Of a stretch of 64,000 nt of DNA, positions 1,392 to 64,000 are shown piece by piece; positions within the stretch are counted from its first letter, which is position 1, and each line of letters begins with the position of its first letter. This DNA is from Podarcis melisellensis. Taxonomy: Eukaryota. The stretch lies in NCBI GenBank assembly GCA_964234715.1, contig OZ174287.1. One strand, 5' to 3'. The notes beneath the pieces are model-generated. The model did not search any database, was not told the origin of the DNA, and saw nothing but the letters and a program-made list of their open reading frames with translations. The position numbers were made by a program, and so were the translations under genes.

Positions 1392-2299
1392 TTCTAGATC
1401 ACTCTCCCTATTTCTCCTTCCATCTGCCACATAAAATTATACTCGTCTTAAATGCTTTGAAATTCCTTTTGAGATGTAATTTATCCTTGTTGCCCTTTCA
1501 GGTCTCAATTCCCTCTTTCTTACCCTACCTCCAGGTTCCTCCTCCTCCTTTTTCTTATTTATTAAATCAACTAGTTACTTTTTTGCTATGGGAACGCAAA
1601 GTGACTTACAATATTTTAATCAAAAACGAATACATGGTGTTATAGAACTTTTTTTTGGGGGGGGGTCTCCTGGGGAAGGAGGAGGAAGTAAGGCTGAGAT
1701 CCATCTTGGAGAGGGAGACAAAAGGGTCTCCTGCACTGCTGTGGACCATGCTGTAAGATCTGGACTCCCTTCATGCAGACTGAAGGTGTAAATAGGCGAA
1801 TAAACCCTATTTCTTAAAGCACAACAGTCTCCAATGTGTCTTCTATTCTCCAAAGGGAGACAGACCCTGTGTGTGTGCCTTTGGCCCTGAGTGCTCTGGC
1901 CACTGCTGGGTGGAGAGAGGGCAGGCACCGGGCTATTGTAACAATACATTAAAATCTGTATTTTTTAAAAAATCTGAGTTGAAAGAAGCAGCCACTTTCT
2001 CCACTCTGCCCCTTCATTCAGCTTCTTTGCCTTGGGGCTCCCTGTCCATTAGCTTCTCTACCTCCTCTCTGGGCCATCACAATATTCAACCATTCCCCTG
2101 AGATGTTTTAATGAACACCAACCAACCCTCTTTTCCTCACAGAAGGTGGACTACGATCTGCTCTGAAGTGTCCCAGCCAATGCACCAGCCCAGCCAATCT
2201 GTGTCCGATACGTCACCGGGCTCAACAATGTACAGGCTGTGCTGCATTAGCATCCGCGGAGTCAACAAGCGAGGCCAAATCACGTGACACTGTGGGGAG

Positions 2300-3900
2300 G
2301 GGGGGTTGTTCCGAAGCAGGTAGAGCCTTTCGATTTTTTGGGAGTGTTTCTATTTTGCCGCCTCTTCATTTTTGCTTGGTTTTGAGGGTTTAAAATTTAC
2401 GGCGAAAAGGGCGTACGATTTATTCCGCCGCCGCCGCCCCCTTGAGAAAGGGCGGTTATAGCTCGCCTTGGTCCCAACTGCGCAGGTGCCAAGGTGCTGC
2501 TGTTCCCATATAAGGCGAGGGAACGGTCACACTAGGGAGACCGCGCGGCACCTGAACATTCCATCGAGTGAGGGGAGCCTGACCCCGCCCTCCTCCAGAG
2601 TGGTTCGGGCGAGTGGCCGCGCGCTCGTGACGCTTTAACGGTCGCCAAAGCGTCCTTTATTCATCCCCCTCCCCTTCAACAGCTGTCGTCCCTTCGCCAG
2701 TTTCCTATGCGCGCGCGCGCCTGTTTTTTCGGAATCCTGCCCCAGTAACAGCTGAGCGCTAGAAGCTCCGCCCCCAACAACGCCAACCTACCAATCACAT
2801 CCCGCCTCCACCGTATGTCCCAATCAAAACTGGCTGGAGGGCTTGTGCCGTCCCAATCTGACTCCTTTCATTGAACAGCTCTTTCCCCTATCAGCCAACC
2901 AGGACGCCGACCTCCTTGTTTGCCCTCGCCCTTCCCGAAGCCCCGCCTCCTCCAAGCCCGGCGCGGCTTCCTCGCCCCTAGGCCCGGTTCCAGACATCCG
3001 CCCGCACTCTTTTCGTATTGTCAAGGGAAGCCACGGTCCCGCCCATCGACGCCGCAGAAACCCAATGAGCGCAGCGCCCTCGCGAACGACTCGGCTCGCT
3101 CGCTCGCTCCCTTTATATTAGTATACATGCGCTTTGTCTCATTCAGCAACACCTTGTTTCCTCACAGCTCATGCTCTGTTAACTCTCTCTCTCTCTCTCC
3201 AGAACGCCCTTACCAAGGCGCAAGTCGTACGCTACGTCTCCGCTCCGCTCTACGCATGCGGCCGTTCCTTGGCTTCGGAAAGGCGTTCGGCGCGTGTCCA
3301 GTCCGCGGCGCATGCGGCTTTCTCCCGGCTCCCTCCCACGGCTCACTGCGCGTGCGCCCTCTCCTCCGCCGCGCGCCGCCTATGCGCATGCGCCCGGGCT
3401 TCTCTCTGCCTTGGTTCCGGTCTGGCTCCTGCCTTGGGCGCCATCTTGGATTTGGGGACAACTGGAGTGAGTGAGTGAGTGAGAAGGCAGAGGAGCCCGA
3501 GGAGGCGAGAGAGGGGAGGGGGGGCCGGATAGCGCCAGGCCCCCCATCCCCACAGTACATCACCGACCCCACCCTCTGCCGTAGAGAGGTAGCCCCTCCC
3601 TTCCCCCGGCCCCCCGCCCCGCAGGGCTCCCTGGACGTTGGAGGATTTCTGGGGCTCCTGGAGGACCAGCCCGCCCCCGTCCGCCCACCCCGCCCCGGCC
3701 CCTCCTGACCCCCCGCCCCAGTTTCCCCGTGAGGGCGGTGGCGCGTTCCGCTTCGGAGGTGCAAGCCTGAGTCCCCTCCGCATCCATTACCTGTGGGTCC
3801 TTTATAGCTCACCCCACCTGAAATATATGACAGGGGCTGCAACGTCCCACTTAGCCCGCGTCTTCCATCCCTTAATAGGCTTCCCAAAGAGTCGTCTGTC
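2300..3900. promoter_or_regulatory. CpG-island promoter of TAOK2
   Basis: Dense CpG/GC block in an otherwise CpG-poor window. Contains NRF1-type TGCGCATGCGC (3383-3393, plus related GCATGCG motifs ~3253, ~3308), YY1-type GCGCCATCTTG (3438-3448), several CCAAT boxes (~2791, ~2820, ~2853) and GC boxes. Boundaries approximate. Confidence 0.85.
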
Positions 3901-4328
3901 GGTAGGGCCTCTTGTCTGATAGAGATTTCCCCTCCTCTAAATTGGGATATTCTCTCCTCCCTCCCCCCCCCCCACCGCCCTGAAGAGTCTCCGTAGAATT
4001 GGGTCTGCTGGGAGACTCCTCATTCACCTTTTCAAAGGGATGCCCCCCATCCTTCCCCTTTAAGTAGAGCCCGCTGCACGTCTTCGCTTCTGCGGATCCT
4101 TTCTTCCCTAGCCAAGCCAGAGAGGGAGATACTCTAGGTGCCCTATGTCTCCTACGCAGAGGCCTCGCTCGTCCAGGGGAGCCAGTGACAGTTCCCTCTA
4201 AACCCTCTTCCTTGATTGGAGGAGTTGGGGAAGAGGAGGAGGAGGTCGGGGGTGTACTCCCCACCCCCAATATCCTGGAGCTGGAGCCGCAAGGGGAACA
4301 GTATCAAGGCAGCTGCCGAGACTTACAG
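3440..4328 (+). other. TAOK2: Probable non-coding exon 1 (5' UTR) of TAOK2
   Basis: Runs from the YY1-motif region to a strong donor CAG|GTGAGA (GT 4329-4330); matching acceptor ttag| at 13844. The 5' end is estimated. Confidence 0.6.
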
Positions 4329-13885: not shown

Positions 13886-37917
<24,032 letters not shown>

Positions 37918-40900
37918 GGCGATGGGGAGAGAACAGGGAAACTTTGCTGGAGGGAGACGGGGGAATTGGCTGGTGGAAAGGGGGAGGGGAGGAGGAGGAG
38001 GCAGGGGGGCGGCGCGTTTGCCGGGGCTCAGCAAGCTAGAACTGGGAGAAACCGAACCGCAGTGTGAAGGCTCCTCAGTCGTCATCTGTGGCCTTTGACT
38101 TGCCACCCACCTTGCAAGCGCAGAGACACAGAAGATTGGACTGTGCGGCGGAAGGTTGCACTCATGCCCTCCGGAGCATGGCTGGGGCCTCCTCCTCAGA
38201 TCGTGGTTTCCTATCCCCCGCCAAATGGATGGAGACACCGAAGCTTGTGAACGTGACGTTGGCAATTGGTTTTTTGCGTCCCTGGTGGTTGCCAGCCGCT
38301 TCCCCCAGCGTTGCCACAATCTGTAGATGGAGAGAGGCAGAGAGCGGTGCCCCGGCAGCGGAGGCTAAATTGTGTCTTCAGGATGTGGCTGAATATTCCC
38401 AGGACGAGGGGCGGGTGGGGAGAAAGGCCCCCCACATCGCAGCAAATCCAGAATTCTTGATTGTGCATCCATAGCTTGCCCTACGCGCTGCAATTGGAGC
38501 TGATGCGCTCGGGAGAGCCTGTTCTGTGTCTCCTGCGTCATGGTTCCTTTCAATCAGTTCAGGCAGTGAGAGAGAGAGAAATTAAATTAACGGGCGTGGA
38601 TTTTGGGAGAACCCTGGATTGCCATTGGTGGCGGCCGATCGGTGCATGCATAGAATTACCAGATTGACAGTGAAAGAACTTTGCCTCCTTCCTGAGGCCT
38701 GGACAGTGGCTTCTGATCCTGAGTTCACAGGCAACCATTACCGAAATCCATTGTTTCTGGACCGTTCTCAGCTCCCAGAACCTTCCTTACCTCACCACAG
38801 TCTGTGGCTGGAGAAGGAATTGTAAATTGCAAGCTGCTCTGGGCTCTTTATCTGCATCGCCCCATTTCTCACAGAGGCGGCCTCCTCCAGCTCCTCCTGT
38901 CACGGCGCCAGGCTGGTTCCACAGGATGGAGCGGGGATTGAGGTTCCGGAACCAGGCCTCGCGTTCCTGTCATGAACCAGAATGTAGATTTTAAACGGTG
39001 CCCTCTACATACCCGCCCCATATGTCTGTTTTGAGACGCGGATTTTAGCCCATGCCAGCCCAGGGATGTGTTTTTGTGTTAATACTCACCACCTTACCCA
39101 CACGGATTACGTCTCTTTCCCCCCTCTGAAGGAAAGACCGCCCCACCACTCTTGCCACCCAGAGGGACTTTGAATGGCAGGCCTCCCTCTGCCACCCAGT
39201 CCTGAGCATTAAATTTAGTTTCCTGGCCCAGCCAAAACCTCTGGAAGGTCAGGCTCCCTCCCTGGCCGAGGGTCACTTGCTTCCGTTGCCCCCGGTTGCT
39301 CCCTTAAGCCACCTCCTCCTCCCAGAAACCACCGTGCCCCCCTACAAATTCGCCTCCTGCCATTCCCGTTGTCCTCCAGCCACTTTCCAGCATCGCTCCC
39401 ATGCACCCCACCTGCCCAGTTTAGACTCGCCAGATCTGCAGCCCTGAGTTCGTATTTGCATGCAGGAGATCGGCTGCAGAATCTGAGCGCCCAGCAGAAT
39501 GAAAGACACCTGTCGGTTCAGAAGCCACCTTCAACCCATCTCCTTCCTATACATTCTCCCCACCCCCAGAACCGTTCCTACCCCCTGGAAAAAACTTATT
39601 TGGTTACATAATGCCCAGTATGAACAAACCCCAAGGCCGGCTACCCAGGGTTTGGGATCAGGGTCAGCCTGTCAGAATCTGCAAACTATATATCTGTGGC
39701 CAGTTGCCCTCCTCTCCTCCTCCTGTACTTAAGAACCAAACCTCTGGTGGAAAATGGGCCCCTGGTTCCTCTAGAGCTATAATTTATCTGAGTCAGACCC
39801 ACATATCCCACCAGTCAATAAAGAACACTTCCTGAAGCCGCCGGGGTGGTTTGCCCCAGCTAAGAGGGAGGGGAGTTTTGCAAGTGGGCTGTTTCAACTC
39901 TGGCCAGCTAAAGGAGAACCTTTGGGGGGGACATGGGACATTTTTCATGTTCAAAACTCCTCTGAGTTGGGAGCCCAATTGGGAGGGGCGGCATCATGTT
40001 GAAATCATGTATGATAACTCTTGTGCAAAGTCAGCTTTCAGAGGTTAGTCTTCCCCTTTTCATTTTGTTCTGAACCATCTCTCAAAGTTTTCACCATCCA
40101 GGGAGAGGAATACTAGATTCTTGGCCACAGCAAGTGAAGAGCTCTGATCAAACTGTACCATTTGAACCCATATTTTAAAAAATACCCCTGCTGCTTACGT
40201 GAAAATTGGAAGCTGGGAAGATGATCTCTAGGGTAGCCTTCTCCCGGCACACTGGCTTTGTTAAATGCATAGCTGTTTCTTGTTTCCCTTTTGGAAGCAT
40301 TTGGCCATGTTGGCTCTCTGAAGTGGGACAGTGTAGGAAGTTCTACCAGCTGTTTGTGTGAATTAAGCCCAAGGATCAGCCAGCAGTGTTGGCATTACAT
40401 TGACTGTACAAAAGGAGCCACATAAACCCCTTTTTTCAGGAAGATTAAGGAAATCCAAGCTTTCTTCTTTTGAAACGTGAAACAAAACTTCCACATCTCA
40501 CAAATCCCTCCTAGAGACTAGGGCAAACTTTTTTTTTAATCTCATAGGTAGAGCACGCAGCTCTGGAAACCATTTCTCACTAGTGATGGAAGGAAAGTCC
40601 GAAGGGTTGTGTGTGGAAGCGAAGGAGAGCCACATGTTCCAGGAACCAGAAATGGGTTACGGAATTATCACAAGTAGTAAAATGAGCCAGGGAAGATCTG
40701 GAAGTAGAAATTTTCCATCTGTTGGCAGGAAATGTGGTGTAGTCCTTCTTTATCTGTGGAAGACATTGTAGTTTCTTAGATTCCCGCCCTCATATTTGGG
40801 CCAGGAACTGAATCATTTTTTTCCATTGTAAGCAGCTGAAGTAAGTCTTGTCCTTTACAACACACAACCCTATTAAAATCCCCCCTCCTTCCTTACCAAC

Positions 40901-42490: not shown

Positions 42491-43376
42491 TACGGTGCTT
42501 GAGTTCCCTAAATCTATATTCCTTCCTTCTCAGACTTGAAAAAAAAATATTCTTGGGCTCAGAAGCAAGTTGAATTCAAGTGACCACTAGGCGTATCTAA
42601 ATATATATATGTGTGTGTATGTATTCACTTATCTGATAATAACAGAAGGATGCATTTCCTTCTGGAAGACCCTCTTTACTCACAAACCTGCAGTTGTATA
42701 TGTGCTCCATCTCAGCCTCTGCAGGTCTGCCCTGTTCTGCCTCTGAAACATTCAACCCTCTTACTTTACAAGGAATTCCATCGCCTAGCAACTGGGCTCT
42801 GGAAGCATTCCCATGGCAACTGCATCCCTGGCAGTTGGCTACCAATTGAAGGAGCATCTTGGTTGCATCCTACCCTCACAGGACGGGGCTTGAAAGGGAA
42901 GGAAGGGTCTGATGGTTTGTATCTTAACAGAGCTCAAGGGCCTTTTATGCATAGAAAATGGGAGGTGTGAAGGTGAAGGCCCCTGAATAGGAAGGGCACT
43001 TGCCACTAAGTCACATTGTGTTCCCAGTTGCTCAATTTCCAGGCCACCACCTTCGTACTCGGTGAGAGAGTCCTGTCCATTAAGTGTGGGCTGCAGAGGC
43101 ATTGATAGAGGCTGCCTCCCCCCAAAAAATTCCCCTTTTCCTTTTTTTAAAAAAACAACTTTGTTTACAGGTCAGCTGGGAATGGTGTAAAGTATAGCAT
43201 TGGTAAGACCCCAGGCACTTGCCCTCTTTTTAATTTGCTCAGAGGCAGTACTTTGTAGTAGCATCTGAGAATTTGTGTCATTGGGATGTAGCTACCTTGC
43301 TGAGCACACGAGGTCGCAGGTTCAATCCCTCACAAATCCAGGTAGGACTTGCAGAAGTTATGCCCTGCCTGAAACC

Positions 43377-44345
43377 CCAGATGCCCCAGATACACTGACC
43401 AGATGTCTGGAAGCTGTGGCTGGATGGTTACGTGGGAGCCGGTTGAAGTTAAATCCTTCTAAGACAGAGGTCCTCTGGCTGGGACGGAGCGATATGGGAC
43501 TGAGGGGGCAACTGCCATCTCTTGCGGGGGTGCAATTAGTGCCAACATCGTCCGTTAAGAGTTTGGGTGTAATCTTCGATAACTCCCTCTCTATGGAGGC
43601 GCAGATTACAGCTATAACAAAGGCGGCATTTTTCCATCTCCGCCAAGCTAAGCAGTTGGCTCCTTATCTCTCTCGCCCTGACCTAGCCACTGTGATCCAC
43701 GCGACGGTCACCTCCAGACTGGATTATTGTAACTCGCTCTACGTGGGGCTGCCCTTGAGACTGACCCAGAAACTCCAGCGGGTGCAGAACGCCGCGGCGA
43801 GACTCCTTACGGGGTCTTCACTGCGAGATCATATCCATCCGGTATTATACCAGCTGCACTGGCTCCCGGTGGAGTACAGGATCAGGTTTAAGGTGCTGGT
43901 TCTCACCTTTAAAGCCCTATACGGCCTAGGACCCTCGTACCTACGGGACCGCCTCTCCTGGTATGTCCCACAGAGAAATTTACGGTCTGCAAATAAAAAC
44001 ATCCTAAAGATCCTAGGCCACAGAGAGGTTAGGCTGGCCTCAACCAGAGCCAGGCCCTTCTGGTGGAACACTCTGTCAGAAGAGACTAGGGCCCTGCGGG
44101 ACCTGACATCTTTCCGCAGGGCCTGCAAGACAGAGCTGTTCCACCAGGCCTTCGGTCAGGGCGCAGCCTGACCCCCCTCCTCTGGCAATCGGCAATCTAC
44201 ACAGAATTTGCTGGATGGTTGCCATTAATTTGATTTTAATTTGATTTACTTAATTTTTATAATGAATGTTTTTAGAATGTCGGATTATTTGATTGTTAGC
44301 CGCCCTGAGCCCAGCTCCGGCTGGGGAGGGCGGGATATAAATAAA

Positions 44346-53452: not shown

Positions 53453-53894
53453 TCAACCTGGCTCCAGACCCACTGTATTCACAAGAGAGAATAATAAACA
53501 CTCCGCTTGAACCCCTCTCCCATTTCCCTCCAGGATCTGGAGGGGAAAAGGACAATGCATCTCTCGCCCATTCCATCGGAGAGAGCCAACATGGCACCCT
53601 CCTGATGTTGGTCAGCTATGGTTCCCACCATCCCTGGCCATTGGCCATGCTGGCTGGGGCTGTTGGGAGTTATAATCTGAAGGGCACCAGGTTGGCTATT
53701 CTTGAAATAATCACAGCAAGCAGAATTGGGAAGGGGGGGGGGAGCTGCAAAGCATGCTGGGTTAATTGCCATAGGATGCATTCTGGGTAAACATCAGGTT
53801 CTGTCCATGAAGGGATTGAAGAACCACTCAAAGCAGCTGGCACTGCCACCTCTTCCAAAATATATTTAAATAAAATGCAAATGAACAAACAAGT

Positions 53895-55034
53895 TGTTAC
53901 GGAAAATCTGGGTGCGTATTTACCCTGCCACCCAGCCAATCGGACCAAAGTCCGTGGGTCTTTGCGGAAGAAAAAGAAGCTCAGCCGGACGCAGGAGCAA
54001 AGTACGAAGATCCAAGTTTATTGGCCAACAGGTTCAAGACGAGATTTGAACCCCGAGAATGGGGCGACATAAACTTTTAAAAGTTCCCTCCAAGTCCCAG
54101 AATACAGTGCATGAAACGTCATGAATTCATTATGGGAAGGTTGGGTTTCATGGATTTCATCATGAATACATTACACACGTCACGAATATCTCAGAGAAGA
54201 GGTGGGGTTACACTAATTAACATTTGAGATAAGGGAGGGGGAAATATGTAGAGCGAGAGATACACATAGGTAAACATTTATCAAGTACCGGTGGTGGCAG
54301 GACAAAGGGCCAGAGATATGCATCGTCTGCCACCTGGTATTGCCCGGAGGAAGGGTTATGGGAGGTGATCCGACAGGATTAAGAAGTTCCTGTGTACGTG
54401 CCCTGTCGCTCTGGGGATTATGGAAGTAGGGATCGTATCATGGAGTGCGAAGGGAGCTGAGTTGAATGACACCAAGAGCAAAGAAATCGGAGTTATGGTT
54501 GATTTTATGTCAATTTCTAAAGGTTTCCTATGCCTTCTGACCTATTCTGTATTGGTGATCAAAAGCGGAAACAAAATGGACACATTGTAGCAAGAATGGA
54601 TACATTTTGACAGTTTTACGAGGTCTCTGGTTTCGGATCCATTGTTCTCACCGTGGGGGGCCGTCAGCAGCTTGTCAGTAGGTTCAATGAGGCGTGCAAG
54701 AGCTCCCTGAGCTAGCTCCTGCAGGACGAATGCATGGTTGTGATTGGCTAAGACGCAGCCATAGGAATAAGCGGAGATACAGGAGCGCCCGGTCTACTCG
54801 TTCTAAGTATGGAGCGCAAATAGCCATAGGAAGAGATAGGAGAATATATTCATATATTTGAGCTTATTTCGCTCGTGGAAGAAAGAAGGGAAAGAGGGGT
54901 TTTCTGGGAGAAGTGTGGTGCTTGTGCAACTGTGAGGGGGACTGGCGGTGGATACTCTTGAGGTCATCGCCTCGGTCGTTCACGGGAGAGGGGGGGGAAG
55001 AGGAGGTACCCCCCCCCGTTCCCGATCCGTATCA
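53895..55034 (-). repeat. 3' LTR of the ERV (~1140 bp)
   Basis: On - strand starts TGATACGGA directly after the PPT and ends TCCGTAACA (8/9 inverted repeat, TG...CA). TATA-like TTTTAAAA at 54075-54082; AATAAA at 54017-54022. Confidence 0.85.
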
Positions 55035-55045
55035 GTCCCCCATTC
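55035..55045 (-). promoter_or_regulatory. Polypurine tract
   Basis: GAATGGGGGAC immediately 5' of the LTR-initial TG. Confidence 0.8.
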
Positions 55046-55109
55046 GGAGATAGATTTGCATCAAAGTTCTGAAAGAACTTGCAAATCCTTTCTCCGCACC
55101 ACAGGAACG

Positions 55110-57134
55110 CTAAATTTCAGTGATCTCGTATTCCCCTTCCCCCAGATGCCTCATCTGTACATAGTCTGGGAAGGTGGTATGTTGGGAACGGGAATAGGCT
55201 CGGAGAGAGAAGGAGTTAGGCGGGGAGGAATGGCGGGGGCGAAGGAGGGAACAGCAGGGATTAATACAGTGCACAGTACAACATAAAACAGACACAGAAA
55301 GCACAGCGGTCAAGATGATGAGCAGCATGACTTTCAGTAATTGTCGGAGCCATCCCAACTTAGGTAACCATCCCCACAAGTCCACATCGGATAGTCCCTC
55401 ATGTTGGATATCGTGTAGTCTCCCTGCTAACTCGTGAATATTGTTCAAATGTCCAGTTATATTTAAGGTCTGGTCCGTCACGTATGTGCAGCACTCGGTG
55501 CCTATTAGGGCACAGGTGCCTCCTTGACTGGACAAGAGGAAGTCCGTTGCAATCCTCGTCTGTAAGCTCAACTGCCTTACCTCGGATAGTTCCGACATGA
55601 GAGAGTCCGTGATCTGGGTCGCCTCCTGCATAAACTTAAGGAGGATGTCAGTGAGCCGAAGGATATCCACATGGTTTGAACCGGCGCCGTAGGCAGGGAA
55701 AAGCGCTCGGCCTACGGTCTCCCCATTTGCAGCAACGTCTGACAGGTCTGACAGCTCCCTTTGTTCCCTCTTATTCCGTTGTCTTCCAGGGGGTAGGTGT
55801 GGAACTATCCTTATTCCGGGGACAATGTAGCCGACGAAGCAGGCTCCGGACATGTGTGGGCTCACCCATGTATATGCGCGGTGTCCGCACACCCAGAATA
55901 GGCCGCTGAGGTAAGATTCCATTCTGCCTGAAGCAAAGGTTTGCAGCAGCATGGAGTCCGAAGGTCGGGGCTTCCAGTCGAAGGGGTGTCCGACGGCAGC
56001 GGCCCAGGCGACTGTGAGATTTGGAAAAGTCCGGGACTCCCTTGTGTTGGTGAAGGTGACCAGGCCAGTTGGCAGGATTTCGAGAGTGTTGGGACATGTA
56101 CTGGATCCAATGAAGGTTCCTTCTCCGGAGAAGCTGCGGCAAAGGGGCCCCTTCGTGGGGCCGGTGAGATAGAGATATTGATGTGTCAAGTTGAGGGCGG
56201 TTAGGTTCCAGGAAGTAACGTTTCCGGAGCGGAATTGTTCCAAGGTCACTGGCACTGGGACTAGTGGGAGGCTCTGCTGTAGGTGGCTAGGCGCGTGGGC
56301 GCAGATCCAGCAGTCCGGGTACGGTGCCTCCTTTGCCACCTGGCTGAGAAGTTTAATATAGGAGTTTCGCTCCCAGGATGAAAGGAGGTCTTCTCCCGGG
56401 AGTGCAGAGTCAGTGCCGAACTGTCGAGGTGCTGTGCCGACTGGGTGGAGTGGGTCGGTAGTGTTTAATAACCGCCTATCCCTGGCGATACCGCCGCATC
56501 TCAGGGGTCCGGCATGGTCCCATGAGGGGGGGCGCGAAGGGTGTATGGGATGGTGCCAACCTTCAAGATATTCAGCCCCTTTCCACTCATGAGTGACCCC
56601 TAGGTTCCATAAGCAGCAGAATCGCCGCAGGCAGAGTCCCTGGAGTTGAGGCTTCTGGGTTTCTGGGGTGGAGAGGAGACACTGGAACCCGAAAATCAAG
56701 TTTCCAGAGGGGTGGTTTGAGCCCGTGTAAGCGTGGGAGGCCCCTCCTACCTCGACTTCGGTCCAGTTCGGGTTTAGTGAAATCTCTCCGTTCGCGTAGA
56801 GAAGATAAGTCCCGTTTTGGCAGGTTAAGCGGTAAGAGGAGTGGTCAAGAGTGAGGGCCGCGGACCCGATACGGCGCAAGTCCTTGTTTCGGATGAAAAG
56901 TTCCCAGTATTCGTCGTTGGCGAGTCGGGGTACTAAAGAATGGCGCAGTAAGGTCCGAGACTCTGGAAGGCAGAAATCAAAGTCCCCCATTCGATCAGGG
57001 TTAGACCTCCCCGTCTCGACCTCATGATAGTCCAAGAAGTGATAGGCCGTTTGTAACCCCGTGCAGTGGTCTGATGATGTGGACTTGACCCAGGATAAGG
57101 CGGTGAGAAGAAGGACGGTGCAGGCCAAATCCAT
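55110..57134 (-). CDS. env: ERV Env, gamma-type covalent SU-TM (674 aa)
   Basis: Kozak ACCATGG; signal peptide; CWIC (56301-56312); furin site RNKR (55767-55778); ISD-like LQTRIATDFLLSSQGGT; CX6CC (CALIGTECC); TM helix; cytoplasmic YxxPhi (YVQM). Confidence 0.95.
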   Translation of the reverse strand: MDLACTVLLLTALSWVKSTSSDHCTGLQTAYHFLDYHEVETGRSNPDRMGDFDFCLPESRTLLRHSLVPRLANDEYWELFIRNKDLRRIGSAALTLDHSSYRLTCQNGTYLLYANGEISLNPNWTEVEVGGASHAYTGSNHPSGNLIFGFQCLLSTPETQKPQLQGLCLRRFCCLWNLGVTHEWKGAEYLEGWHHPIHPSRPPSWDHAGPLRCGGIARDRRLLNTTDPLHPVGTAPRQFGTDSALPGEDLLSSWERNSYIKLLSQVAKEAPYPDCWICAHAPSHLQQSLPLVPVPVTLEQFRSGNVTSWNLTALNLTHQYLYLTGPTKGPLCRSFSGEGTFIGSSTCPNTLEILPTGLVTFTNTRESRTFPNLTVAWAAAVGHPFDWKPRPSDSMLLQTFASGRMESYLSGLFWVCGHRAYTWVSPHMSGACFVGYIVPGIRIVPHLPPGRQRNKREQRELSDLSDVAANGETVGRALFPAYGAGSNHVDILRLTDILLKFMQEATQITDSLMSELSEVRQLSLQTRIATDFLLSSQGGTCALIGTECCTYVTDQTLNITGHLNNIHELAGRLHDIQHEGLSDVDLWGWLPKLGWLRQLLKVMLLIILTAVLSVSVLCCTVHCINPCCSLLRPRHSSPPNSFSLRAYSRSQHTTFPDYVQMRHLGEGEYEITEI

Positions 57135-57212
57135 GGTCTGGATGCGTGTGGGGAGAGCACAAATAGTCAGACGAGCGAAGGTGTTCAGATAAAGCGAGGC
57201 TGTAAAGTGCAG

Positions 57213-57550
57213 CTATCAGATGAACTGTCAAACGAGGCTGTCAAACGAGGTAAGCTGTCAACGGAGCTGTCAAATGAAGCTGTCAGATGAACTGTCAAAC
57301 GAGGCTGTCAAACGAAGCAAGCTGTCAACGGAGCTGTCGAATGAAGCTGTCAGATGAACTGTCAAACGAGGCTGTTAACGAGGCTGTCAAAGGAAGCGAG
57401 CTGTCAACGGAGCTGTCAAATGAAGCTGTCAGATGAACTGTCAAACGAGGCTGTTAACGAGGCTGTCAAAGGAAGCGAGCTGTCAACGGAGCTGTCAAAT
57501 GAAGCTGTCAGATGAACTGTCAAACGAGGCTGTTAAACGCGGCTGTCACC
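57213..57550. repeat. Higher-order tandem array of 12-17-bp CTGTCA/TGACAG monomers between pol and env
   Basis: Higher-order units start at 57213, 57280, 57347, 57426, 57505 (periods 67, 67, 79, 79); ~26 monomers, 21 with perfect CTGTCA. Confidence 0.95.
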
Positions 57551-60500
57551 GCGTCTGAAACGTAGCTTGATGGTGTTGGTATCCGGGATGATTTCGGACG
57601 TCCAGTTGGATGTCGTGGTGTCAGGTCCGGTCTGTTGGGCCCGACTTTGGCCCCGATCTGCTGGTCCGGTCTGTTGAGCCCGACTTTGGCCCCGATCTGC
57701 TGGTCCGGTCTGTTGAGCCCGACTTTGGCCCCGATCTGCTGGTCCGGTCTGTTGAGCCCGACTTTGGCCCCGATCTGCTGGTCCGGTCTGTTGATCGTCG
57801 TCGTCAATGTATGAGATCGGTGGAGTAGGTGGAGTCGAAAAGGTGAAGTCCTCGCCGTTGCTCTCTTCAGTCTCTTGTGGAGGGGGTGAGGACTTGCACC
57901 TAGTGTGATGTAACCAAGAATTCTTCTCACCTACTTTCACGGCGGTTGGCGATGTCAAGAGCACTTGGTAGGGGCCTTCCCACGCGGGTTGGAGTGGTTC
58001 CTTCTGGTAGACTTTGACGAGGATCCAGTCACCAGGGTGGAAGGAGTGGGCGTGGACGTCGATGGGCAGGTTCTGTCCCTCGATGGCCGCGTAGTGGTGG
58101 AGGCGCTGTAGTTGTGTCTGGAGCTGAATAACATAATTAGTAAGTTCTGCCTCCCCCAGCTCCAGTTCTGAAAGTGGGAATAGAGTGTTGTAGACGGGAG
58201 GAGGTCTCCCGAATAAAAGTTCGAATGGAGAGAGTTTCAAACGTCCGGTTGGGGCGCTGCGGATGTTATGAAGAACCAGTGGGAGTGCATTCACCCATTT
58301 TAGGCCAGTGAGCTCGCAAAGTTTGCCCAACTGTATTTTTATTTCCTGGTTCATACGCTCTACTTGGCCAGAGGATTGTGGGTGGTATGGAGTGTGGAGG
58401 TCCCATTTAATTTGGAGTGTTTTGGCCACTAATTGCACCACTTCCGCAGTAAAGTGGGTTCCCCTATCGCTATCTAAGCGGCGGGGTATGCCATAGCGGG
58501 GAATGATATCCTGTAGGAGGGCTCTGGCGACTACGGACGCGGTAGCTTTTCGGCAAGGGAATCCCTCCACCCACGAGGAGAATTGGTCCACTATAATCAA
58601 AGCATGTTTAAAGCCTTGGCATTGGGGCAGATCAATAAAATCAAGCTGCAAGTTCTCAAAAGGGACAAAGGCCCATGGTCTGGCTCCTGGTGGCCTCCTG
58701 GGTTCACGCTTGGGATTGAAGCGATGGCAAGTAATGCAATTCTTTGATGCTGCTGCTGCGGCGGCAGCTATCCCGGGTGCATACCAAGATCTAATGATAT
58801 GTTCCATTAATCTCCCTTTTCCCCAATGTGTCCGCTGATGAAGAATCCTCACTACTTTTGGAGTCCAGGCCTTTGGAAGGACGGTTCTGCCATCGGGGAG
58901 GACCCAGATGCCCTGTTGTTCGGTGGCACCTATCGATTCCCACATAGCCTTTTCATCCCCTGGGGCAGATTTGTAGATTTCCGTAAGGTCAAGGTCTGCT
59001 GGTAGTTGGAGGGCTTGAAACTCGGATTCATTGTTGGGGATGCGTAGGGCAGCCATCTGTGCGGCTTTGTCGGCTCGTCTGTTTCCTTTAGATACCGAGT
59101 CCCTGCCCTTGGTATGGGCTTTGCAGTGGACAACGGCTATAGCGGCCGGTAGATGGATCGCCGTGAGAAGTCGCTCAACTAGGGCGGCGTGCGAGATTTG
59201 AGACCCGGCGGCGGTTAAAAAACCTCTCTGGAGCCAAATTTGGCCGGTTGTATGCACCAGACCGAAACAGTATTTACTATCAGTATAGATGGTTATCCGC
59301 TTCCCTTCACCAATCTCGCAGGCACGCAGCAGCGCAATTAATTCGGCGGCTTGGGCACTGTACTGGGAGTTAATTGGGTTTGACTCTAGTACTTCGAAGT
59401 CGGAGACCACCGCATACCCAGTCTTCCTAACCCCGTCGATTACTTTAGAACTACCATCAGTATATAGTATTAGGTCCGGGTTCTCCAGGGGGAGATGATC
59501 TAAATCTTCACGGGGCTTTTCGGCTTGCCGGACTATAGTGGTGCAGTCATGATGTGGGGTGCCATCATCAGGAAGGGGTAGCAGGGTAGCGGGGTTTAGG
59601 GAGTTGACACGTTTAATGGTGACATTGGTTGGGGTTAGTAGGAGGGCTTCGTATCGGTTGAGGCGGGAGTTTGAGAAATGGTGGCATCCTTTTAAGGTTA
59701 AGAGGGTTGAGACTGAATGGGGAACGTGAAGGGTGATTTCGTGGCCCAGGACTGTTTCTTGGGCTTTCTCGAGGAGGACAGCAGCGGCTGCAATGGCTCT
59801 CAGGCAACTGACAGCCCCTTTAGCAGTGTTGTCGAGTTGCAGACTATAATATGCTACTGGCCTCTCTTGGTCGCGAAAGGGTTGGGTTAGGACACCGGAG
59901 GCTACCCCCATTTGCTCGTGGATGAAGAGGTTGAAAGGGATTCGGTAGTCGGGTAATCCTAGGGCAGGGGCAGATCTGAGTTCCCGTTTTAGTCGTTCGA
60001 AAGAGTTGTAAGCTTCTTTTTCCCAGACCAAGGTGTCTGGGTGGTCCTGACGCGTCATAACAGTTAAGGGCTTCGTTATTTCGCTGTAACCAGCGATCCA
60101 TGCTCGGCAGAAGCCGGCCATGCCAAGGAAGCCGCGCAACTGTCGTTTTGTTTTTGGGAGAGGGATTTTAGTAACTGCCTCAATCCTGTCAGTGGCTAGA
60201 CTTCGGGTCCCTACTCCCAAGATGTGTCCCAGATACTTGACTTCTTGTTTACAATATTGGAGTTTCTTTGGAGACACCTTATGTCCTTTCTTTGCTAATT
60301 CTGATAGGAGGTGTTTAGTGTCTATCTTACACGCCTCCTCACTGGTAGAACACAATAAAATATCATCCACGTAGAGAAGCAAGGTGGAGCTAGCCGGTAG
60401 GTGGATGTCCTCTAAGTCCTGATGTAATACGGCCGAAAAAATTGCGGGTGACTCTACATAGCCTTGGGGCAGTCTGGTCCAAGTTAGTTGGCCGGGTCCC

Positions 60501-61411
60501 CAGGTAAATGCAAAAAGGAATTGGCTGGCCGGGTCCAAGGGTATACTGAAGAAGGCGGAACACAGATCTGCGGCGGAGTACCACGTCGTCCCTGCTGGAA
60601 TTGCGTTTAGGAGGGAGTTCGGGTTGCCCACTACCGGGTGTCTAGGTATTACGAATTGGTTCACTAATCTCAAGTCCTGTACAAAGCGGTACCGTATAGG
60701 TGCCCCCTCCTTTGCGGGCTTCTTGACCGGGAGAACTGGGGTATTACAGGGTGAAGCGCACGAGACTAGGATCCCCTTTTCGAGGAAGTCCTCAATCATG
60801 GGTGTTAGGCCTTCTATGGCTTCTTTGGGCAGAGGGTATTGCTTGGTGCACGGGAAGGGCAAGTCACTTCGGTAGGTGATCTTGACTGGAGTAGCAGAGA
60901 GTAAGAGTCCGACTGAGGTTGATTCAGTGCCCCATAGGGAGGGGGGCAATTCGTTTTCCAGGTCCAAAGGGAGTTCAGGAAACTGTCTGTCCGCTTTGGA
61001 TTCCTGGACGATACCTTGGAACATGGGAATAGAGTCCCCTGGCATATGTAGGTAAATGCCATCCGAGGAGCATTTTATGGTGGCGTTAAGTTTGCAGAGG
61101 AGGTCTCTGCCAAGGAGATTGACAGGGCTGCTTGTTAGGAGGAAAGTGTGTTCCGCCAGTAATGGTCCGAGGGTGACTTTGGCCGGTCGCGAGAGCGGAC
61201 AAGTGCGGGGTATCCCATCCAGTCCCATTACTTTCTTGGTTACTGTCCCTGGTTGCAGGTGACTGTCGGTTAGGGTGGAATAGGTAGCCCCTGTGTCTAG
61301 TAGACATTGATAGGGGTGGCCGTCAATCTCGATAGTGCAGACCGGGTCCTCAGGTGACAATGCAAGAACAGGGCAGATGGTTTGGGTCTGACTGGGATCC
61401 CCTTCTAATTG
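57533..61411 (-). CDS. pol: ERV Pro-Pol (protease, RT, RNase H, integrase), in frame with gag across a single TGA
   Basis: LLDTGA protease; QDLR, LPQG, YVDD RT; YTDGS..AELIAL..YTDSKY RNase H; HHCC, D-D-E (LDFI, SDRG, VERMN) and WEGPY integrase. No stop between 61411 and TAA at 57535-57533. Confidence 0.97.
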   Translation of the reverse strand, partial: QLEGDPSQTQTICPVLALSPEDPVCTIEIDGHPYQCLLDTGATYSTLTDSHLQPGTVTKKVMGLDGIPRTCPLSRPAKVTLGPLLAEHTFLLTSSPVNLLGRDLLCKLNATIKCSSDGIYLHMPGDSIPMFQGIVQESKADRQFPELPLDLENELPPSLWGTESTSVGLLLSATPVKITYRSDLPFPCTKQYPLPKEAIEGLTPMIEDFLEKGILVSCASPCNTPVLPVKKPAKEGAPIRYRFVQDLRLVNQFVIPRHPVVGNPNSLLNAIPAGTTWYSAADLCSAFFSIPLDPASQFLFAFTWGPGQLTWTRLPQGYVESPAIFSAVLHQDLEDIHLPASSTLLLYVDDILLCSTSEEACKIDTKHLLSELAKKGHKVSPKKLQYCKQEVKYLGHILGVGTRSLATDRIEAVTKIPLPKTKRQLRGFLGMAGFCRAWIAGYSEITKPLTVMTRQDHPDTLVWEKEAYNSFERLKRELRSAPALGLPDYRIPFNLFIHEQMGVASGVLTQPFRDQERPVAYYSLQLDNTAKGAVSCLRAIAAAAVLLEKAQETVLGHEITLHVPHSVSTLLTLKGCHHFSNSRLNRYEALLLTPTNVTIKRVNSLNPATLLPLPDDGTPHHDCTTIVRQAEKPREDLDHLPLENPDLILYTDGSSKVIDGVRKTGYAVVSDFEVLESNPINSQYSAQAAELIALLRACEIGEGKRITIYTDSKYCFGLVHTTGQIWLQRGFLTAAGSQISHAALVERLLTAIHLPAAIAVVHCKAHTKGRDSVSKGNRRADKAAQMAALRIPNNESEFQALQLPADLDLTEIYKSAPGDEKAMWESIGATEQQGIWVLPDGRTVLPKAWTPKVVRILHQRTHWGKGRLMEHIIRSWYAPGIAAAAAAASKNCITCHRFNPKREPRRPPGARPWAFVPFENLQLDFIDLPQCQGFKHALIIVDQFSSWVEGFPCRKATASVVARALLQDIIPRYGIPRRLDSDRGTHFTAEVVQLVAKTLQIKWDLHTPYHPQSSGQVERMNQEIKIQLGKLCELTGLKWVNALPLVLHNIRSAPTGRLKLSPFELLFGRPPPVYNTLFPLSELELGEAELTNYVIQLQTQLQRLHHYAAIEGQNLPIDVHAHSFHPGDWILVKVYQKEPLQPAWEGPYQVLLTSPTAVKVGEKNSWLHHTRCKSSPPPQETEESNGEDFTFSTPPTPPISYIDDDDQQTGPADRGQSRAQQTGPADRGQSRAQQTGPADRGQSRAQQTGPADRGQSRAQQTGPDTTTSNWTSEIIPDTNTIKLRFRRGDSRV
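57624..57793 (-). repeat. 39-bp coding tandem repeat (x4.4) in integrase C-terminus
   Basis: Units start 57624, 57663, 57702, 57741, 57780; encodes (QQTGPADRGQSRA)x4. Confidence 0.97.
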
Positions 61412-63427
61412 TCAATAAGTGTCCTGATCATCGGGAGGCGGTTGGTTTGGGGGGTGCAAGGGAGGAGCGGTAGCGTTCACCCAAGGGTGGGCAGACTGGT
61501 CTATGGTTGGCATTTGGGTTCGGGGTCCCGATTGGGGTCGAGTTTGAGGTATCGGGTTCGAGGGCGTTGGTGGAGCATAAGCCGCTGGTTGGTGGTTGGT
61601 GTAGCCTGGGGTTACGTTGGGTTGCGGGGGGAAAGGTGGTTGGCTGGTTCTAGCAGGGAAGGACTTGGGTTCTTGCCCCCCGTAGGGTGGCGCATTTAGG
61701 TAAGGGCAGAATCTTTTTATGTGTCCTTCTTCCTGGCAGTAGTAGCACCCTCCAGTCCCCGGTCCCCATTGCCTATAGGGGTTTGGGGGTCCTCCTCCCC
61801 GGACCCCCTTTCCTCGGTTGAGACCTCTACCTCGGTTAGGGCCATAAGTGGTTTCCATACTTAGGGCCAAGATCTGTTCGACTTCGGATTTTGTCTCCTT
61901 TTTCTTTCTCTCATCTCGAGAGTTGTAGATGGATTTCGCAATGGACAAGATTTCATTTACACTCTTTCCATCATATCCAATTTGAAGATTCAGGGCTTTC
62001 CTAATGTCTTGGCAGGCCTGATCCTTGAAGAAACCTTTAACGATCACTTCATGTTGCGGATTCTCGGGGTCGATTCCTCCCCATGTTTTGATGGCGGAGA
62101 CTAATCTAGTATAATAATCAGAAGGGTGTTCGTTTGGCCCCTGCATTACCGTTTGGACTTTGGTCCAATTAACGGTGCGTTGTCCGGCTGCCTTTACGCC
62201 ATCCAGAATGGCTTTCTTAAATAGTTTCAAGCACCAGATCCCATTGGTCGTGTTATAATCCCATGTAGGTTCTACTCGAAGGGATTGTGCGGTGAGCGCC
62301 TGCAATCCTTGGGGCCGTCCCCTCTGGTAGTCGGGTGATTCTATAGCTTCCCCGGCTTTAGCCAGAATGTCCGCCTTCTCTGCCTCGTTGAAGAGGGCAT
62401 TCAGAAGGACGTGGACGTCCGCCCAGGTAGGATTGTGGGTGGAAAAGATTGCGCTGATCTGGCGGTGACATTTGTCCGGATCGTCCCTCAGGGAGGGCAT
62501 CTGGTTGGACCAAGTTACGAGGTCCGAAGTATAAAAGGGATGATGCGTATACACCATTCGTGGGGGTCCATCAGGTGAGAGAGGTGGGATCGGCAAAGCC
62601 CTTAGGGGCATCTGGATCGCTGTAGAGCTCACAGTAGAGCTCACTTGGTCAGAAGGTCCTGGGATCTCTTTGTCATGGTTCAGGGGCTCTGCTGTAAGCT
62701 CACAAGGCTCGGAGGGGAGATCCCAATTTCTGTTCGGGACAGGATCCTCAAGGGTGTTGTGGAGCGTTGAGGAAGGGGTTTTAGCTTTGGCCTGCCCGGG
62801 GTCTTTGGTTTTAGTCTGTCCAGAGTCCTTAGTTTTAGCCTGCCCAAGGTCTTTCTGGTCCTTTTTGGCTTGCAGCCTTGTGACTCTTCTGCTGCCTTGA
62901 GCCCCTTCCTCCCCCCCCTCTTCATCGCTACTCGAACCACTGTCAGACGACGGTGGTGGCGGTGGTCCTTGGTAGTAAAAGGGGACCAGGGCCTGCTGTA
63001 TATCCTCGTCTTCATAAGGGGGGGGCATTTGCTGTCGACCGGGATTCAATATAGGTAGCTGGTAAGAAGTTGTTCCCCTTGGGGCTTGGAGCACTCTCCT
63101 TACGGCCTCAAAGGTAGCCAGGTATTCCAACTGGCGGGGTTTTTCTTCTATTAAGTATTTCTTTAAGTAGTTCAAGCGCTCTTCATTAAACGAACCCCCT
63201 GCCGGCCAGCGTAGTTCGGGCTTGGCCGAGGCGGTACTGGCGGGCCAGATTTCAGAGCAGAGGTCCTCTAACTTTTCTTTGGATAATAGCTTGTGGCCAG
63301 GGATCGACTTCCAGTGCGTGATGACAAATTGGAGAGGAGAGTCGGGATCCTTCTGAGATCGGGATGGCTTTCTAGAAGCCTTCCTCCCAGAGTGAGCCCG
63401 CTCGTGTTTGGAAGCCTGGGTACCCAT
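61412..63427 (-). CDS. gag: ERV Gag polyprotein (671 aa)
   Basis: ATG in ACTATGG; MGTQAS myristoylation pattern (MGxxxS); PPPY late domain; MHR-like QGPNEHPSDYYTRL; one CX2CX4HX4C knuckle (CYYCQEEGHIKRFC); TGA stop. Confidence 0.95.
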   Translation of the reverse strand: MGTQASKHERAHSGRKASRKPSRSQKDPDSPLQFVITHWKSIPGHKLLSKEKLEDLCSEIWPASTASAKPELRWPAGGSFNEERLNYLKKYLIEEKPRQLEYLATFEAVRRVLQAPRGTTSYQLPILNPGRQQMPPPYEDEDIQQALVPFYYQGPPPPPSSDSGSSSDEEGGEEGAQGSRRVTRLQAKKDQKDLGQAKTKDSGQTKTKDPGQAKAKTPSSTLHNTLEDPVPNRNWDLPSEPCELTAEPLNHDKEIPGPSDQVSSTVSSTAIQMPLRALPIPPLSPDGPPRMVYTHHPFYTSDLVTWSNQMPSLRDDPDKCHRQISAIFSTHNPTWADVHVLLNALFNEAEKADILAKAGEAIESPDYQRGRPQGLQALTAQSLRVEPTWDYNTTNGIWCLKLFKKAILDGVKAAGQRTVNWTKVQTVMQGPNEHPSDYYTRLVSAIKTWGGIDPENPQHEVIVKGFFKDQACQDIRKALNLQIGYDGKSVNEILSIAKSIYNSRDERKKKETKSEVEQILALSMETTYGPNRGRGLNRGKGVRGGGPPNPYRQWGPGTGGCYYCQEEGHIKRFCPYLNAPPYGGQEPKSFPARTSQPPFPPQPNVTPGYTNHQPAAYAPPTPSNPIPQTRPQSGPRTQMPTIDQSAHPWVNATAPPLHPPNQPPPDDQDTY

Positions 63428-64000
63428 AGTATATTTCACGCGTGTCTAGACAGGAAAGAGGAGAGAGGGGTCGGTAAAGTTTGGTGGGCCTAGGGTGTTA
63501 CTCAATAAAGGGCTTGTAGTAACAGAGGGGTCTTCAGTCGCTTGGCAACTTCCTTAGAGAGTTTTTAAAGAGCTCTAGCTATCCGGTATTATTTCCTTTC
63601 CTATTTCCTTAACCAATAATCTGGGGTCCCTTTCCACTCTGCCAATCCTGCCCAATTCCTCATGGGCTATTCCCCCCCTGGCAACCTCCTACCTATCGAT
63701 TACTCTCAGGAAAAGGGGCCCTACTGAACGCCCGCGCCGTGCGGTGCCAGATCGGGTAGTCCCTGGATAGAACTTCGGGTCGAAAATCCCCCTTGCTTTC
63801 GGAAGCGGGCTTACAATACACGGGGTACGTAGCCCGACCGGTGCGGCTGGGATTGGGATAGAAAGCAAGACCACTTCCTGCCCCCTAGGAAGGACGCTCG
63901 GGAAGATCGGAAAAAGAGCTCCAACCCCTTGCTTTCAACTGGGATGCCCGTTGCGGAGAGTCGGCTATCTTTCAAGTCGGGTCACTCCGTCTTACCCTTC

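Follow-up and report, generated by a model that had tools for sequence, protein, structure and literature searches.

Structure and coding capacity of the provirus

Did a retrovirus enter the germ line of the lizard Podarcis melisellensis recently, and if so, to which lineage does it belong and how does it express its pol gene? The question is raised by a stretch of 64,000 nucleotides (contig OZ174287.1, hereafter the window), whose right-hand end (53895–64000) is occupied by an endogenous retrovirus (ERV) on the minus strand. Our reading, to which we give a probability of roughly 75%, is that the element is a full-length, recently inserted provirus from a non-gamma (epsilon-side) lineage of class I, that its family has gone on multiplying in the Podarcis germ line and that its pol is expressed by type I readthrough.

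The gag gene (61412–63427, minus strand as are all coding features below) was found to encode 671 amino acids from the ATG at 63427, within a stop-to-stop frame of 677 codons (61412–63445). The pro-pol gene (57533–61411) contained 1292 codons for protease, reverse transcriptase (RT), RNase H as well as integrase, and the gamma-type env gene (55110–57134) encoded 674 amino acids from the ATG at 57134, within a frame of 700 codons (55110–57212). The open reading frame (ORF) scan found zero internal stops in the three frames, which bears out the original prediction of uninterrupted genes (671 amino acids, about 1290 codons and 674 amino acids). The gag and pol genes shared one frame and were separated solely by the TGA at 61414–61412.

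Gag contained an MG start, a PPPY late domain, a major-homology-like region, a p30 capsid and one CCHC zinc knuckle, and its C-terminus was long and proline-rich. Pol contained the protease and RT motifs DTGA, LPQG and YVDD, the RNase H motifs YTDGS, DSKY and GNRRAD, and the integrase motifs H-x3-H...CxxC, D-D-E (QLDF, SDRGTHF, GQVE) and WEGPY. In Env, the CWIC motif, an RNKR furin site, CX6CC and a single membrane anchor were present. Eight Pfam matches were obtained (Gag_p30, RVP, RVT_1, RNase_H, Integrase_H2C2, rve, MLVIN_C and TLV_coat), and no dUTPase or G-patch family was among them. The catalytic motifs announced in the original prediction were thus all recovered, by motif reading and by Pfam. 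The best solved-structure matches were RT/RNase H chains of the murine leukaemia virus (MLV) type for Pol (E 1e-162) and syncytin-1 for Env. Intact gag, pro, pol and env, which Wang and Han require of an invading ERV along with identical LTRs (long terminal repeats) and insertional polymorphism, are all carried by the provirus in the window.

The observed/expected (o/e) ratio of CpG was 0.69 across 53895–64000 vs 0.31 across 1–53894, and the claim of weaker CpG depletion in the element held. In 26 of the 27 flank bins of 2 kb the ratio was 0.51 or less; the exception was 2001–4000 (0.83), a host CpG island. No ATG-initiated ORF longer than 56 amino acids was found in the long terminal repeat (LTR), the spacer between pol and env or the part of the leader within the window, and the distance from the env stop to the LTR was only 75 nucleotides. 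Rfam gave no match at a useful score within the provirus.

Copies, empty site and age of the family

Read contigs of four of 24 runs were compared with the window; X1 and X4 represent organism A, and X5 and X15 represent organism B, a related species. X1 is the probable source run of the window and so is no independent sample. The internal region was found in X1 as unbranched contigs of 0.4–2.2 kb, with a depth 4.6–6.0 times that of the flank: the unique flank had a depth of 28, the gag-pol contigs 161–168 and the env contig (one unbranched piece of 2214 bp) 131. These ratios suggest about 5–6 diploid-locus equivalents of the provirus in X1, contig depth being no proper copy number by the tool's own warning. 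The LTR contigs of X1 had a depth of 296–345, or 10.5–12 times the flank, which corresponds to about two LTRs per internal copy and therefore to few solo LTRs in the young subfamily.

The window differed from its sibling contigs in X1 at 5 of 7304 internal bases. In organism B, a 445-nucleotide contig of X5 (depth 47, flank 45) matched 53645–53894, and the remaining 196 letters do not run on into the LTR: this organism has an empty site. The flanks of organisms A and B differed at 30 of 688 and at 8 of about 250 bases. At a substitution rate of 1–3e-9 per site per year, which is our own assumption, the internal differences correspond to 0.2–0.7 million years, and this is an upper bound because reverse transcription and assembly errors add differences. 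The near-identical siblings in X1 and the empty site in the related species support the recent insertion that had been proposed. As for the label "very young", an age that probably does not exceed a few hundred thousand years agrees with it; the insertion is not necessarily current, as seven differences were counted in 7.6 kb.

The best Pol match was a P. muralis protein (UniRef A0A670IS81), with five amino-acid differences across pol residues 62–1180. Among the best 120 of 457 Pol matches, further P. muralis, P. lilfordi and Zootoca proteins were 65–93% identical, and the first matches outside the lacertids came from a sea turtle, an opossum and a snake, at 52–54%. Every named protein among the 16 Env and 14 Gag matches belonged to Podarcis or Zootoca. 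Full-length env of this family is annotated at nine loci or more in P. muralis. The closest Env cluster contained nine RefSeq proteins of 673 amino acids from at least seven large contigs of P. muralis, together with one UniRef protein; these ten were 90.8–94.5% identical to the window Env and formed subgroups whose members were 1–3 and 3–5 residues apart. As judged from these sequences, the family appears to have expanded recently in more than one Podarcis lineage.

Long open pol or env frames were also observed in five further Podarcis and Zootoca sequences (P0007, P0010, P0175, P0176 and P0072). Such frames are carried by two or more other sublineages of the lacertid clade, with 65–70% pol identity, and by a distinct family on the gamma side, and several ERV families therefore look recently active in lacertids. 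In X15, which is RNA by guess, 27 of 30 bins were covered and the first flank bin had no coverage; this hint that the organism B relative is transcribed was not used as evidence.

Classification

The RT tree (RT and connection domain, unrooted) contained 45 rows; 44 of 45 reference rows were retained, and the short row L033 was left out. Rows L004 and L013 were taken as Moloney MLV (MoMLV) and as walleye dermal sarcoma virus (WDSV), since their lengths and junctions agree with Table 1 of PMC13517186. The window was placed inside a clade of lacertids only (support 100/100). This clade fell on a side of 30 rows with turtles, a snake, an opossum, newts, fish and WDSV, and was split at 100/100 from the 15 gamma-side rows that include MoMLV. 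A quick tree of 114 rows, from which seven short matches were left out, agreed. No grouping of the window RT with MoMLV and its relatives was found in the 45-row tree. The window lay outside the 19-row group of WDSV, on the same side of the unrooted split. The RT phylogeny that had been proposed as a check thus separates the lacertid clade from the gammaretroviruses. A HERV-I-like placement, considered from the host range of the matches, was ruled out, as the bird and crocodilian rows lie on the gamma side.

A GPY/F motif in the integrase and the absence of dUTPase and G-patch are class I markers, and two nucleocapsid zinc knuckles are typical of epsilonretroviruses (PMC1224870). The assignment to class I from YVDD, GPY, the single knuckle, in-frame gag-pol and CX6CC was supported, all of these features being found. 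On the present sequences the provirus is best placed in a class I, non-gamma lineage. It should be no member of the genus Epsilonretrovirus, because its Gag has one zinc knuckle.

The lizard provirus shares in-frame gag-pro-pol with WDSV, SSSV (salmon swim bladder sarcoma virus), ZFERV (zebrafish ERV) and RMEV (Rhinella marina ERV), and WDSV lies on the same non-gamma side of the RT tree. It differs from the epsilonretroviruses in its one knuckle instead of two, in having no accessory ORF from env to the LTR (the rest of the leader lies beyond the window), and in a long integrase tail, which WDSV does not have. With MoMLV and other gammaretroviruses it shares Gag_p30, the single knuckle, the GPY motif, the gamma-type Env and the readthrough layout, and the gammaretroviral integrase end, W...(L/I)K(I/L)R(L/F), is resembled in the lizard provirus. 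The gammaretroviruses differ by their separate RT clade (100/100) and by UAG-G with a pseudoknot, neither of which was found in the lizard provirus; they have no counterpart of its 400-nucleotide repeat spacer from pol to env, and the N-terminal domain of the lizard Env has no sequence kinship to theirs.

Relation to known elements

Intact, polymorphic invading ERVs (ERVi) of squamates were described by Wang and Han (2023; PMC10435555). These elements agree with the lizard provirus in their intact genes, recent age and squamate host, and a young intact reptile ERV is therefore not new as a kind. Scro.ERVi.2 was the nearest by motif; the RT motifs DLCSAFFS and PQGY-x-ESP were found by eye to be shared. 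The Squamata rows examined carry the prefixes Hcur, Ctig, Scro, Acar and Cada and include no lacertid, though P. muralis was screened.

Non-gamma class I retroviruses are mostly known from fish, amphibians or decayed fossils. The lacertid class I lineage is apparently undescribed: no description of the family as an ERV was found in the literature searched, whose coverage left out most subscription papers. The claim of a poorly sampled squamate lineage holds in this respect; it does not hold for the host, a Podarcis, as P. muralis, P. lilfordi and Zootoca all have automated gene models of the family. Such models, for example UniRef A0A670IS81 and RefSeq LOC114588027, are labelled "Gag-Pol polyprotein", "NYNRIN-like" or "uncharacterized"; several bypass the gag stop through apparent false introns. 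It is to this family that a set of gene models wrongly named "NYNRIN-like" and "syncytin-1-like" in Podarcis can be traced. Alignment scans returned no lacertid DNA and matched reference retroviruses and other vertebrate ERVs instead, and a single-protein scan of viral contigs gave no match.

An intact, multi-copy family that spread recently in a well-studied lizard genus would make an ongoing germ-line invasion traceable in wild populations. What makes the provirus valuable is its type I context, an env domain specific to the family and the recent expansions that took place in parallel in Podarcis.

Predicted readthrough context of the gag stop codon

The gag stop is followed by the hexamer CAA TTA (61406–61414, minus strand, TGA CAA TTA), a predicted type I readthrough signal. 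The sibling copies in X1 carry the same junction (no differences over 60242–62048). Six relatives (P0210, P0212–P0215 and P0218) finish gag at the matching place, and the others are gene models that end differently; a nonsense mutation after insertion was thus ruled out as the source of the TGA.

The gag-pro junctions of 80 retroviral loci were surveyed; 19 RNase-H-only loci were left out. A junction was counted as usable when gag carried a knuckle and an in-frame stop came after it, ahead of the protease. All 51 usable junctions contained a G after the stop; they are mostly from mouse or gamma-type elements and non-independent, and only four belong to the non-gamma side. At a given place, CARYYA is expected by chance with a probability of 0.0026 and the exact hexamer of tobacco mosaic virus (TMV) with one of 0.0002. 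This context, missed in the first note, is the most unusual feature of the provirus.

A simple scan, which recovered the pseudoknot of MoMLV at +12, found no MLV-type pseudoknot after the gag stop in the window, WDSV or L032, and the combination of UAG-G with an H-type pseudoknot was not present at the junction in the window. No stable local fold was found after the stop (z +0.55), and these folding z-scores are uninformative because the MoMLV control failed as well. In a fish-type relative (L034/L035), gag was observed to end in UGA with GGA after it, 80 codons 5' of the protease motif, and a pseudoknot-like match was obtained.

CARYYA is the type I signal of tobamoviruses and is functional with UGA as well (PMC3542737). 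According to a 2026 review (PMC13517186), type I is active in mammals, UGA included, and needs no downstream structure, animal viruses use only types II and III, and readthrough in epsilonretroviruses has never been verified. A UGA gag stop is also given there for SSSV, ZFERV and RMEV. The junctions tabulated for WDSV, SSSV, ZFERV and RMEV are UAG-GAU, UGA-AGA, UGA-CGA and UGA-AGU, the last three being the epsilon-related UGA junctions of the review; that of the lizard provirus is UGA-CAA-UUA. Stop plus CAR-YYA is shared with tobamoviruses, benyviruses, pomoviruses and Providence virus, and the lizard provirus has the exact TMV hexamer. Those viruses are RNA viruses of plants or insects that use UAG or UAA, whereas the lizard case is UGA in a vertebrate retrovirus (PMC3542737). 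In Table 5 of the same source, published in 2012, an insect virus, Providence virus, is entered under type I, which counts against any claim to be the first in animals. No description of CARYYA in retroviruses was found in the literature searched, most subscription papers again being outside its coverage. The junction makes type I use in animal viruses and epsilon-type readthrough testable.

Proposed mechanism and alternative explanations

The LTR would drive genomic RNA, and a minority of ribosomes would pass the gag UGA to give Gag-Pro-Pol, stimulated by CAA-UUA alone and not by a pseudoknot of the MLV type. Env would be translated from a spliced RNA that uses an acceptor just 5' of the env ATG. 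The family-specific N-terminal domain of Env probably binds the receptor, and the integrase tail probably acts as a tether for integration by way of BET (bromodomain and extra-terminal) proteins. Spread by reinfection is suggested because many young copies retain an open env. A bolder version is that of a still-active epsilon-side Podarcis retrovirus, reinfecting in several species, with the first structure-free UGA-CAA-UUA pol expression in a vertebrate virus and with a receptor-binding domain (RBD) of its own, maybe outside both known retroviral classes (RBD-C and RBD-R); we regard this as possible, though doubtful.

Several points weigh against our reading, besides the tool's caution on depth. 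The window copy is not identical to its siblings, as 2 of 321 bases differ from the X1 LTR contig, and this short LTR stretch alone gives 2–6 million years at the same assumed rate. The 5' LTR, the primer-binding site and the far end of any target-site duplication lie beyond base 64000, so that both the full length of the provirus and the identity of its LTRs are presumptive. The window RT is 47% identical to MoMLV, higher than the 38% to WDSV; the RT tree was built without an outgroup, and the base of its WDSV-containing side was not resolved. The BET-like motif of the lizard integrase has no conserved proline and a different spacing. The hexamer was picked out post hoc, the copies in which it was read being those of organism A, and a long-range stem-loop, as listed for epsilonretroviruses in PMC3542737 (Table 5), is possible.

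It is this last point that opens an alternative for the junction, in which the provirus is equally young and a downstream or long-range RNA structure promotes readthrough, CAA-UUA being incidental or auxiliary. The extended stem-loop entered for Epsilonretrovirus in that table, the blindness of the folding test to structure even in the MoMLV control and the fact that the hexamer was read in copies of a single species are in its favour. The exact TMV hexamer would then have arisen by chance, at about 0.0002, and neither a pseudoknot, by the scan that recovers that of MoMLV, nor a stable local fold (z +0.55) was found; we consider this explanation improbable. The age has also to be weighed, since an older, fixed insertion might have kept its frames open by chance or by co-option (e.g., of env), or its copies might have arisen by segmental duplication. 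The private differences of the window copy from its siblings, one of them with a CpG-decay pattern, would fit greater age. All three genes are open, not env alone, CpGs are retained throughout, the site is empty in organism B, and the sibling divergence of about 0.1% is far under the 3–4% of the flanks between organisms A and B. Segmental duplication is disfavoured because the X1 flank is single-copy while the internal region is 5–6-fold. This explanation was judged very unlikely.

The recent provirus with type I readthrough being preferred, its spread might still have been intracellular only, by retrotransposition, with env carried along in copies too young to lose it. The lower depth of env (4.6-fold) than of gag-pol (5.7–6.0-fold) in X1 and the contigs that diverge at 55100 are consistent with this. 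A full-length Env with furin site and CX6CC intact was found across lineages 45–95% identical, in three named lacertid species, and a long env-independent spread is disfavoured because it would not preserve such an intact Env. Purely intracellular spread is therefore held to be unlikely.

Env and its N-terminal domain

The N-terminal domain of the surface subunit (SU), env residues 23–235 (56430–57068), is a putative RBD of roughly 210 residues, seen in this env family alone. Some 250 residues separate the signal peptide from the CWIC motif. A profile of residues 23–235 matched 52 of the 364 stored proteins, the named ones all from Podarcis or Zootoca, and no other of the 364 reached an E below 1.5. 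The Env profile search covered 1.84 billion representatives and gave 1708 matches, of which the best 150 were listed. Among the matches listed, the nearest other Envs (Rhineura, Laticauda, Sphenodon) have 460–480 amino acids and start near CXXC, and the N-terminal domain therefore looks like a lacertid acquisition.

The predicted model of the domain was all-beta (pLDDT 68, pTM 0.70) and resembled SPRY and galectin-like sandwiches only weakly (best Z 5.0, root-mean-square deviation 3.9, 102 aligned). In PDB and BFVD, Foldseek gave no match for the model at E≤0.001, and its top 50 VIA-align rows contained no known retroviral RBD; this does not imply a new fold. The whole-SU model was poor (pLDDT 45) and gave no fold match. 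Atlas features placed the domain with Env SU clusters (0.92; a lead only). A survey of RBDs (10.1101/2024.03.17.585361) mentions, in the parts available, another Podarcis Env with CX9CC and no RBD. A predicted env splice acceptor was found at 57138–57175 (minus strand), with a branch-point-like CTGAC, a pyrimidine tract and a CAG three bases before the ATG.

Integrase tail and pol-env spacer

About 110 residues were found past the GPY domain of the integrase, containing a repeat of 12–13 amino acids, whose number varies in frame among relatives, followed by W...IKLRF. In the window the repeat (57624–57794) was 39 bp (13 amino acids) long and in frame, with 4.4 copies. The terminal motif W-x10-IKLRF (57551–57604) resembles the gammaretroviral tail that binds the extra-terminal (ET) domain of BET proteins (BRD2/3/4). 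In the gammaretroviruses compared, the integrase ends with W-x6–7-PLK(I/L)R(L/I/V), and WDSV is without it; the more distant lacertid members retain a PP(I)(K/R)(L/M) form. Binding of the Brd4 ET domain maps to the integrase tail, which is called gamma-specific in PMC4005663. A tethering of integration by the lizard tail through BET proteins is plausible from its sequence.

A non-coding spacer between pol and env contained a tandem array of 67/79-bp units (57192–57548), which is shorter in the organism B relative; X15 joins 57182 to 57490 across it. The array was observed to be rich in TGACAG words on the minus strand, resembling repeated branch points and acceptors, and may tune env splicing.

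LTR, boundaries and leader

The 3' LTR (53895–55034, minus strand) was 1140 bp long, with TG...CA ends, an imperfect terminal inverted repeat of 9 bp and an AATAAA polyadenylation hexamer at LTR position 1013 (54022–54017, minus strand). Its left boundary was supported independently, as the organism B contig tracks the flank to 53894 exactly and then departs. The host bases 53890–53894 are a candidate target-site duplication, the other end lying beyond the window. A short polypurine-tract-like sequence (55035–55045, minus strand) is present ahead of the LTR.

The 5' leader (63428–64000, minus strand) has at least 573 nucleotides and continues past the window edge. A putative splice-acceptor-like pyrimidine tract with AG (63446–63470, minus strand) lies 18 nucleotides 5' of the gag ATG; such a strong acceptor-like sequence may yield a spliced gag-pol RNA without the long leader.

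Contigs of X1, X4 and X5 were observed to diverge from the window near 55100, having the LTR and the purine tract in common and a different upstream sequence. Members without env or with another env exist in the family, because some contigs diverge at 55100 and the env depth is below the gag-pol depth. A family that is much larger and older has parts of the LTR in common with the provirus (reaching about 640 times flank depth in X1) and includes many solo LTRs and diverged relatives; the same high-copy family shares parts of the leader at 63450–64000 (to about 80 times).

Host flank

In the host flank, the CpG island at 2001–4000 was followed by exon-like frames at about 22000–38000 (plus strand), including a frame of 767 codons. 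These presumably belong to TAOK2, the 767-codon frame being, we assume, a long isoform-specific exon; no database match was obtained. The provirus lies about 16 kb downstream of these exons. In 100 frames of 38.4–53.9 kb and in four upstream frames, no host gene family was recognised by Pfam, apart from one weak chance match among the 100. A 300-codon frame at 43269–44171 (plus strand), with a CpG ratio of 0.76 in one 500-bp bin and no Pfam match, is probably a young fragment of a long interspersed element (LINE); we take it to resemble the 3' end of an L2/CR1-like LINE reverse transcriptase. Very abundant copies of a short interspersed element (SINE), which we take to be Sauria-SINE-like, were found at 53603–53695, 17822, 20349 and 46692, one of them 200 bp from the insertion site.

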